From: a virus
Lineage: Duplodnaviria; Caudoviricetes
Strand: one strand, 5' to 3'
Length of the DNA: 64,000 nt
IMG/VR virus record: IMGVR_UViG_3300047382_000771
Coordinates: 128,001 to 192,000 of that record
Below the pieces are notes generated by a model that was not told the origin of the DNA, did no database searches, and saw only the letters and a list, made by a program, of their open reading frames with translations. The translations under genes and the position numbers were made by a program. Below are positions 61,166-62,877 of the stretch, in pieces. How positions within the stretch are numbered: position 1 is the stretch's first letter; the number at the start of each line of letters is the position of its first letter.

Positions 61166-61456
61166 TTATCTAGCTCTTATTTTGTTTATAGCTAACTTGA
61201 TAAAATTTGGTGTTAAGTGGTGCTCTAACATGGAGTCTAATTCCCTAGAGGATAAGAATACTTCTCTGCAGTAGTCAGTATTGTCACTTTCTACAGCTGC
61301 AATTCTTGCCGATGCTTTAGACGCAGCTATCTGCTCCCTAGGCATCCCGCCCCATTTAATAATAACGGGAAGATCGGGCAACTCTGCCGATAAAGCTTTT
61401 AATTGAACGGAGTCTATGTAACCCCAATTATCGATGATGTCTTTTAATATAGTCAT
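61166..61456 (-). CDS. Early hypothetical protein (96 aa; start revised to MTILKDII)
   Basis: TTGCCT-17-TATATT-6-ATG at 61456. Confidence 0.7.
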   Translation of the reverse strand: MTILKDIIDNWGYIDSVQLKALSAELPDLPVIIKWGGMPREQIAASKASARIAAVESDNTDYCREVFLSSRELDSMLEHHLTPNFIKLAINKIRAR

Positions 61457-61504
61457 AAGAGTAATATAGATTAAGCCCCAGGAAGAGGCAAGAAAAAAAT
61501 ACAT

Positions 61505-61544
61505 AAAAAAAACCCCACTCGCCGAAAGGAAAACGAGTGGGGTT
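61505..61544 (-). terminator. Strong Rho-independent terminator
   Basis: AACCCCACTCG-N12-CGAGTGGGGTT followed by a T run on the minus strand. Confidence 0.85.
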
Positions 61545-62016
61545 TAGGGATGGGGGACGTGAGCTTTCGCTCGAAATAGATGTGGGACAGGAATACTGAA
61601 TACCTGCAACTTTCGGTGTGAACATCAGTTCATTGGTTATCCTACTTGTACTACAATTGAATTGGACATTCTACCTCAGACATTTGTCCATTGGCACTCC
61701 ACCACAGAGAATCATATACCTTACCTCGCACACAAAGAGGTCTTCGGTCACCCACAGGGAGGATTATAAGCCCTCCCAAAGAGAATCACGAAGGAGAAAC
61801 AAAACTGACAACTCTGCTTGGCGCCTTCTTTGCAGGGGTTCGTCAACCAATGTCATATCAAGTTTCTGCTTAGCGAGCAGTCTTCAATCAGTACGGAGAT
61901 GTAAGATTGTAAGTACTGAAGCTAAAACTTCGTAAAATTATTTAAAATGTAAAAGATCGAAAAGTCTGGGGTTATTTTATTTGATTGAGTTACCCCTTCT
62001 CAATTATGGAGAATAT
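61505..62016 (-). ncRNA. Candidate structured ncRNA of about 510 nt
   Basis: TTGACA-17-TACTAT promoter with no ATG at the start site, many hairpins, own terminator, no convincing ORF. Confidence 0.5.
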
Positions 62017-62051
62017 ATTAGTATAGTACTATATATGCCCCAATTTGTCAA

Positions 62052-62213
62052 CTATTTTTTTGAATATAGATGACTTTTTTCCAACGGATCATCACATAGA
62101 AAGCAAGGTCCATGACCTGCCTTTGGGCAAGAATGGCTGAAGTCAGGCTCTTCTTGCAAGCAATGATTACATCCTGCAGACAATAACACAGATAATAGAA
62201 TAAAATATTTCAT
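62052..62213 (-). CDS. Small Cys/His-rich putative lipoprotein (53 aa)
   Basis: MKYFILLSVLLSAGCNHC...; signal peptide with an imperfect lipobox. Confidence 0.55.
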   Translation of the reverse strand: MKYFILLSVLLSAGCNHCLQEEPDFSHSCPKAGHGPCFLCDDPLEKSHLYSKK

Positions 62214-62282
62214 TGAATTATAATTATAGTTTATAGATTTGTAAATGTATTATATAATTACTAGTATGTTTATCAAGATAAA

Positions 62283-62796: not shown

Positions 62797-62877
62797 AAGG
62801 GGATACTAAGGGATATTCTGTGTTGTGTCAACTATCTTTTTGATATTAATTAAAATTTTGGGGCACGCTCGCATAAA

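Follow-up and report, generated by a model that had tools for sequence, protein, structure and literature searches.

What kind of RNA, if any, is made from the ~510 nucleotides (nt) between positions 61505 and 62016 on the minus strand of this stretch of DNA? The stretch, of 64 kb in all (hereafter the window), belongs to a virus record of 200,094 base pairs (bp) from an uncultured marine tailed phage of ~200 kb, and the original prediction proposed that the region encodes a structured noncoding RNA (ncRNA) with its own promoter and terminator. The present analysis supports this proposal and identifies the RNA: the region is a longer, independently transcribed form of the known family manA, whose catalogued core makes up 200 nt of it, and not a new RNA family. 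We consider it probable that this region forms a gene of its own for a stable ncRNA of ~510 nt, modular in construction, with its own promoter and terminator and a boxA-type leader, which acts in trans and is not a riboswitch. The parts of this unit are listed in the order in which they would be transcribed.

62023-62051, minus strand: sigma-70-type promoter, with the -35 element TTGACA at 62051-62046, a 17-nt spacer and the -10 element TACTAT at 62028-62023.
61968-62003, minus strand: 5' hairpin and predicted H-type pseudoknot, with covariation of both stems among relatives.
61942-61958, minus strand: boxA-like box GATCTTTTACATTTTAA; of 50 unique related loci, 44 have a box 5' of manA.
61786-61935, minus strand: lineage-specific branched domain of 150 nt, predicted to be closed by an 8-bp helix (ACGAAGUU.../...CUCCUUCGU).
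61577-61777, minus strand: manA RNA core (Rfam RF01745), with a score of 61.8 bits (gathering score 55.2) and an E value of 2.6e-13, over model positions 1-192.
61505-61545, minus strand: intrinsic terminator, with a GC-rich stem of 12-14 bp, a loop and T8, from a consensus scan.

The identification rests on the core. A comparison with Rfam by Infernal, which had been suggested as a check, returned a match to manA above the gathering threshold; manA is the sole Rfam family above threshold in the window, and the copy at 61777-61577 is the only one in the whole 200,094-bp record. Helix P1 is kept (GGGAGG 61777-61772 with CCTCCC 61762-61757, noticed earlier as a GGAGG/CCTCC stem), as is the long-range UGUGGG/CCCACA pairing. 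The conserved blocks GUGAC-GAA, UAAGGU, GUGGUG and GGUAUNCAGUANUCC are likewise present, and these elements, with GGUAUUCAGUAUUCC, align with the 56 other copies that were fetched from IMG/VR by means of the conserved 3' pattern. On the alignment of these 57 copies, RNAalifold predicted 38 pairs, and compensatory changes were found in 24 of them, which answers in favour of a structured RNA the proposal to collect homologues and examine covariation. The window copy falls in a divergent subgroup with a shortened peripheral helix, together with the fetched loci L042, L052, L065, L120, L123, L152 and L201. Because the family is too divergent for blastn, searches of cultured phages with the region, a relative's region and the manA of the Synechococcus phage S-CREM1 as queries returned nothing except the query itself. 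Exact 16-mer matches in IMG/VR numbered 19; none aligned to the region, and they were set aside as chance. A search of genome contigs with the manA pattern gave a number of matches close to that expected by chance, with two real copies in metagenome-assembled genome bins named Rickettsiales MED606 and Ca. Neomarinimicrobiota; a bin assignment of this kind is not evidence of the host.

The ends of the unit were predicted earlier and were found again by consensus scans. The promoter, TTGACA-17-TACTAT, would place the start of transcription near 62016, and the terminator has the arms AAACCCCACTCG..CGAGTGGGGTTT at 61545-61510 (minus strand), followed by eight T down to 61505; its stem of 12-14 bp compares with the 11 bp reported before. 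The background of such scans was estimated over a 2.5-kb region, which contained 4 terminator-like sites against 1.4±1.3 expected and 15 promoter-like sites against 8.8±3.0 expected. Between the two signals, the region is richer in guanine and cytosine (GC) than its surroundings, as had been noticed: the GC fraction is 0.44-0.475 over 61500-61900 and 0.21-0.41 in the flanks on either side. Folding of the whole 512-nt RNA gave z = -2.67, and none of 100 dinucleotide shuffles folded equally well. Most of the stems that had been pointed out in the region are present. One was recovered in part: the letters of TGGACA/TGTCCA are in place, and the pairing is not kept in the closest relative, L052, which has TGACCCA; the family alignment prefers a local hairpin, GGAC-AAAT-GTCT.

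A protein-coding explanation, in which the region encodes one or more small proteins, can draw on open reading frames (ORFs) that exist mechanically: sense ORFs of 30-42 amino acids (aa) and an antisense ORF of 105 aa with a GTG start at 61618-61935. A hypothetical ORF is also annotated over manA in the Prochlorococcus phage P-SSM4. We regard this explanation as extremely improbable, in line with the earlier statement that there is no credible sense ORF. None of these frames has a Pfam match, the sense ORFs of 61505-62016 included, and the region is conserved as RNA, with compensatory changes of pairs and with insertions and deletions through which no frame could stay intact. A frame of 8-9 codons in the 5' hairpin (MRRGNSIK in the window, MRRGDSLK in the syntenic relative L021) was considered as a conserved peptide and rejected: relatives keep the stem and lose the frame, the start codon being replaced by TTA or TCG, or the stop being absent, as in L024. 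A weak, sub-threshold Pfam match belongs to a 65-aa ORF at 61428-61625, which overlaps the terminator and the start of the next gene. In P-SSM4 (NC_006884; L085 1085-1258), the hypothetical ORF PSSM4_169.1 lies almost wholly over manA (record positions 164829-165014) and is probably a mis-call. ARAGORN found neither a transfer RNA (tRNA) nor a transfer-messenger RNA (tmRNA) in the window, again as predicted.

The arrangement seen in the window recurs in related phage loci. Features of the flanks were counted by script over 50 unique upstream and 50 unique downstream contexts of manA copies, and the layout that emerges is a promoter, a 5' hairpin, a boxA-like box, an optional and swappable insert, manA and a terminator, followed by a separate promoter that abuts the next ATG. 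A promoter of the form TTGAC-N16-19-nAnnnT was found in 46 of the 50 upstream contexts, the 5' hairpin in 40, the box in 44 and all three in 37. Downstream, 38/50 contexts show a GC-rich hairpin with a T run no more than 140 nt past the manA 3' end, and a fresh TTGAC promoter stands right after the terminator in 29 of these 38 loci, with the ATG 4-7 nt past the -10 element and no Shine-Dalgarno sequence. A scan of IMG/VR for the hairpin-plus-box leader showed that every genuine leader precedes manA, the four exceptions being chance matches in coding DNA.

This context bears directly on the role that has been assigned to the family. The 2010 description of manA (PMC2864571) put it forward as a candidate riboswitch; the copies came from marine metagenomes, T4-like cyanophages and two gamma-proteobacteria, and the genes downstream were an odd mixture. 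It has remained an orphan candidate since then, and the mixture never made sense. Applied to the window, the proposal of Weinberg et al. 2010 (PMC2864571) would make manA a cis-regulatory element, possibly a riboswitch, and the terminator at 61545-61505 the expression platform for the gene that starts at 61456. The order of an aptamer-like fold, an intrinsic terminator and a gene is the classic riboswitch order, and pairing between the 3' arm of the window terminator, GUGGGG, and CCCAC, the 3' strand of manA, is conceivable. The gene in question, which lies outside the RNA, is the following.

61166-61491, minus strand: next gene, with its own promoter TTGCCT-17-TATATT (61491-61463) and its ATG at 61456.

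Thus, manA in the window is not in a 5' untranslated region (UTR) position, since a terminator and a separate promoter stand between it and the next ATG. The ATG lies 6 nt past the -10 element, without a Shine-Dalgarno sequence, and a transcript reading through from manA would be poorly translated: the next gene has its own leaderless start, and such an mRNA would carry no ribosome-binding site. The terminators of the 38 loci are mutually unrelated in sequence, and by inspection they share no conserved alternative or anti-terminator pairing with manA, which argues against a riboswitch expression platform; the spacer from manA to the terminator ranges from 7 to ~100 nt. Furthermore, the gene 3' of manA differs between close relatives. 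The 96-aa gene of the window was considered as an obligate partner of manA and ruled out, since close relatives carry other genes in its place. The boxA-type leader, typical of untranslated stable RNAs, and the tRNA genes on both sides of manA in S-CREM1 (see below) also speak against a riboswitch. What speaks for one is the placement of manA directly before ORFs in P-SSM2, P-SSM4 and L036-type phages. On balance, a cis-regulatory role appears quite improbable for the window copy; the context calls the Rfam label "Cis-reg" into question, and membership in the manA family stands.

Two further settings of manA should be considered here. In the cultured Synechococcus phage S-CREM1, a T4-like cyanophage (OP535465; L083 1333-1703), manA scores 96.6 bits. 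It is flanked by tRNA-Leu and tRNA-Asn at distances of 1 and 0 nt, and the tRNA cluster to which all three belong also holds wcaG and a match to the abiF motif. Since the tRNAs stand so close on both sides, RNase P and tRNA 3' processing would free the manA RNA. A similar route is known from phage T4, whose tRNA cluster encodes the stable RNAs rnaC and rnaD, co-transcribed with the tRNA genes and released by tRNA processing. The S-CREM1 manA would be released likewise, its sequence being unrelated to those of the T4 RNAs, whereas the window copy uses a promoter and a terminator instead of flanking tRNAs.

In the T4-like cyanophages P-SSM2 (purL-like ORF), P-SSM4 and those of the L036 type (gp32), manA stands directly at a TTGACA-17-TATAAT promoter and a translated ORF comes next; these loci have neither the box nor the terminator. 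If the role of the box is to protect untranslated RNA, it should be dispensable where a translated ORF follows manA, which agrees with its absence there. Thus, a free manA RNA could be made in three ways: from its own promoter, boxA-type leader and terminator, from between tRNA flanks, or as the first part of a transcript. That three different routes could lead to it argues that the free RNA is the functional form.

In L036 (10552-10773), and also in L053, L069 and L071, manA lies between gp23 and gp32; the promoter abuts manA, and gp32 starts ~49 nt after it. The corresponding position in phage T4 is that of the gene 32 autoregulatory pseudoknot leader.

A further element of the window unit is the box. 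Its general form is G(A/T)TCTTT(A/T)ANATTTTA, which resembles the E. coli rrn leader, and it begins 44-80 nt past the -10 element, with a covarying hairpin in between and manA on its 3' side. The boxA consensus is GYTCTTTAANA, as established for gamma-proteobacteria (PMC5725501). Among the 50 unique manA leaders, the most frequent forms are GATCTTTAACA (23), GTTCTTTAATA (8) and GATCTTTTACA (7, the form of the window), the rest being close variants. A perfect match to the consensus is present in nine leaders (8 with GTTCTTTAATA and 1 with GTTCTTTAAAA), and 25 of the 50 match at 10 of 11 positions (23 with GATCTTTAACA and 2 with GATCTTTAAAA). In the E. coli rrn leader, which was verified on the RefSeq genome, the P2 promoter and a hairpin are followed by CTGCTCTTTAACAATTTATCAG, 100 nt before the 16S gene. 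Compared with the E. coli sequence GCTCTTTAACAATTTAT, the phage boxes are identical at 13-14 of 17 positions, and that of the window at 13.

The same box precedes a second stable RNA of this phage. Only two copies of the 14-mer TCTTTTACATTTTA are present in the 200-kb genome; the second ends 4 nt before the first base of the phage tmRNA, and the longer box GTTCTTTTACATTTTAT abuts the tmRNA gene. This gene lies outside the window (G000:C1:30645-31043, minus strand; locus L109 846-1244, minus strand), scores 124.8 bits with Rfam and has the tag AESSQRVVDLDSIELGLEMAA according to ARAGORN. Three of four related records that were searched also have a tmRNA (G002, G003 and G004), each directly preceded by GTTCTTTAAAATTTTAT or GTTCTTTAATATTTTAT, which match the consensus perfectly. 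The box takes its weight from its position and conservation, not from genome-wide enrichment. By analogy, it looks like a leader for untranslated stable RNAs, and loading of Nus factors (NusB/S10), as on ribosomal RNA (rRNA) operons, would be the best-fitting known mechanism.

Alternatively, the RNA gene may be real and the box something other than a Nus-factor boxA; it might be part of a promoter, either -10-like or specific to the phage, or it might direct processing by an RNase or be contacted by a phage protein. In the tmRNA leaders, the 3' half of the box, TAAAAT or TAATAT, lies 5 nt before the first base of the tmRNA and would be a plausible -10 element. At position 2, a pyrimidine in the consensus, most manA leaders have an A, and the box of the window has two mismatches; the conserved block also exceeds boxA in length and includes ATTTTA. 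Moreover, boxA is judged here by a gamma-proteobacterial consensus, from which the host and its Nus factors may depart. On the other hand, the upstream consensus promoter and the covarying, therefore transcribed, hairpin place the box inside the manA transcript, and most copies have no -35 element that would match the box as a -10. The order of promoter, hairpin and box, together with the 13-14/17 identity to the E. coli rrn leader, extends the likeness over the ATTTAT flank. We therefore consider a box of another kind rather unlikely, and keep to the boxA-type leader as the preferred reading.

The resemblance to the boxB-boxA leader of E. coli rrn (PMC5725501, PMC4807359) has its limits. The order of a promoter, a hairpin, a boxA-like element and a long untranslated structured RNA is the same. 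The phage box, however, precedes an ncRNA and a tmRNA and not rRNA, its position 2 is often A, and binding of NusB/S10 to it is putative. The phage hairpin is moreover conserved in sequence and is part of a pseudoknot in a subset of loci. The leader common to manA and the phage tmRNA may be a further sign that phages borrow host rRNA antitermination for their untranslated RNAs.

Cyanobacteria are not known to possess Rho. Should they indeed lack it, the presence of a boxA on these RNAs would, speculatively, fit a non-cyanobacterial host. As a clue to the host, psbA was searched for in the phage genome and is absent. The phage encodes a giant tape measure protein, its terminase has remote relatives only, and its DNA is present in many seawater metagenomes.

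The hairpin upstream of the box is itself well defined. In the window, stem 1 is formed by TTGAG (62003-61999) and CTCAA (61989-61985) around the loop AAGGGGTAA, ~13 nt past the predicted start. It covaries among relatives, with TTGAG/CTCAA in 25 sequences and TTAAG/CTTAA, ATGAG/CTCAT, CTGAG/CTCAG and TCGAG/CTCGA in others. Stem 2 spans the A-rich linker TCAAATAAAATA and joins GGGGT of the loop (61996-61992) to ACCCC (61972-61968). Where the loop is 9 nt long, 4-5 of its bases complement a segment past the A-rich linker, and the pairs change together (GGGGT/ACCCC, GAGGC/GCCTC, GGGGC/GCCCC, GGGC/GCCC, GGAT/ATCC, GGGT/ACCC and AAGCT/AGCTT). As a control, Watson-Crick complementarity of at least 4 bp was found between the loop and its own linker in 12 of 17 sequences, compared with 38 of 246 cross-type pairings. 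These base changes indicate that the 5' hairpin is an H-type pseudoknot in a subset of loci that includes the window. The pairs in the leader were counted by script; MAFFT alignments of the leaders set the strands of the pseudoknot out of register. No Rfam family matches the 5' pseudoknot.

Between the box and P1 lies a site of modular insertion. The interval measures 11-12 nt in most relatives, and in others it is filled by hairpin modules of 37 to 218 nt, which always close just before P1. At least three unrelated types of module recur, each covarying within its type and none of them in Rfam: one in L120, L152 and L023, a second in L125, L212, L040 and L081, and a third in L042, L052, L065, L030, L142 and L172. 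The insert of the window is the third-longest seen. It holds two stems that were noted earlier, CAGTAC (61918-61913) with GTACTG (61894-61889) and CTGCT (61880-61876) with AGCAG (61870-61866), and its predicted fold has z = -2.62.

Taken together, we propose the following course of events. Host sigma-70 RNA polymerase would start at the promoter at 62051-62023 and end at the terminator at 61545-61505, so that the transcript would carry, in order, the 5' H-type pseudoknot, the boxA-like box, the 150-nt branched module and the conserved 200-nt manA core. On the model of rRNA leaders, the box may load NusB/S10 and other Nus factors onto the polymerase, which would then cross ~450 nt of untranslated RNA without Rho-dependent termination; such loading could also help the RNA to fold during its synthesis. 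The RNA would most likely act in trans, as a free folded particle, rather than as a 5' UTR sensor for the next gene. The architecture agrees far better with a free RNA, trans-acting or structural, than with a riboswitch.

Several observations weigh against this proposal. In T4-like cyanophages, manA is placed like a 5' UTR, and a cis role for the family is possible. The score of the window copy, 61.8 bits, is the lowest among the copies examined, its relatives scoring 71-97. The window box GATCTTTTACA departs from GYTCTTTAANA at 2 of 11 positions, in a comparison with a gamma-proteobacterial consensus that may not be that of the host, and the genome holds no excess of the degenerate 11-mer (5 seen, 5.5 expected). 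Because the inserted domain has no homologue among the 214 fetched loci, its modelled structure is argued from folding energy (z about -2.6). Finally, where the RNA starts and ends in this phage, and how abundant it is, are all predictions.

Compared with the manA motif as catalogued (RF01745), the window unit has the same core, with the full covariance model, P1 and the GUGGG/CCCAC pairing, and it is phage-borne and marine like most members. It differs in standing outside a 5' UTR, with its own promoter, a 240-nt leader (pseudoknot, box and 150-nt insert) and a terminator, and in belonging to a ~200-kb tailed marine phage without psbA that is not a T4-like cyanophage. What the present analysis adds to the family is thus the conserved stand-alone architecture, the pseudoknot and the boxA-like leader with its box shared by the tmRNA, and the modular insertion site.

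What might such a free RNA do? In a 2026 preprint (10.64898/2026.07.01.735769), five manA RNAs were studied in vitro by cryo-electron microscopy and formed pentamer-based octamers, decamers and a 60-subunit icosahedral cage; the same preprint still calls manA a putative cis-regulatory (5' UTR) element. ROOL and GOLLD, RNAs of phages and prophages that are often near tRNA islands, form RNA-only cages (PMC12286853). manA resembles them in being phage-encoded, in lying near tRNA genes (in S-CREM1) and in forming closed homo-oligomeric assemblies in vitro (other manA sequences), and it resembles GOLLD in having a conserved 3' part and a variable 5' part. However, there is no relationship in sequence or secondary structure to ROOL or GOLLD, and the manA core is much smaller (~200 nt).

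It is possible, and we put it forward only tentatively, that manA in this abundant marine phage lineage is no regulatory leader and instead builds a particle of RNA alone, namely a closed oligomer or cage based on pentamers. Its RNA would be made early, as a separate transcript, with Nus antitermination of the rRNA type. The exchangeable modules on the 5' side, among them the 150-nt domain of the window, would then be appendages displayed on the particle or packed into it. The formation of oligomers or cages is carried over here, by analogy, from the literature on other manA RNAs and not from this copy. If this view is true, the boxA leader of the tmRNA would mean that the host rRNA transcription machinery is used for all stable RNAs of the phage.

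Some smaller features of the window and of related loci remain to be described. A short hairpin that had been noticed lies in the spacer between manA and the terminator.

61561-61572, minus strand: small hairpin GAGC-GAAA-GCTC, read from the sequence and not conserved in relatives.

In L028, L037, L070 and L098, a second conserved RNA-like element is found ~20-130 nt after manA and before the terminator; it consists of GCAAATATGCGGAGGTTGTGTGTTGCCTC... and then a covarying hairpin with the loop TAACTCAATAAAAG, and is absent from Rfam. In L058, ~35-85 nt after manA, a copy of a pseudoknot-type element, TTGAGAAGGGGAACTCAAGAGAATAAAATACCTCAG followed by T7, occupies the site where other loci have their terminator.

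The next gene of the window, with the ORF 61456-61166, encodes 96 aa with the N-terminus MTILKDIIDNWG. Its homologue in L021 begins with MKLLKDIIDNWG, which supports the ATG at 61456 over that at 61504, and the ORF listed as 61166-61504 thus most likely starts at 61456, judging from this comparison. The protein has no Pfam or PHROG family, and its matches in the Atlas are at noise level only. Own sigma-70-type promoters with an ATG 3-6 nt past the -10 element and no Shine-Dalgarno sequence are found at 61463-61491 (ATG 61456), 62803-62831 (ATG 62796) and 62217-62245 (ATG 62213); the mRNAs of these early genes are probably leaderless.

Just 5' of the RNA promoter lies an ORF of 53 aa (62052-62213, minus strand), which has no Pfam or PHROG family. 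Its N-terminus, MKYFILLSVLLSAGC, resembles that of a lipoprotein, its other end, HSCPKAGHGPCFLCDD, is rich in Cys, and the relative L041 has a homologous end, HSCPKSGHGPCYLCD, at the same position.

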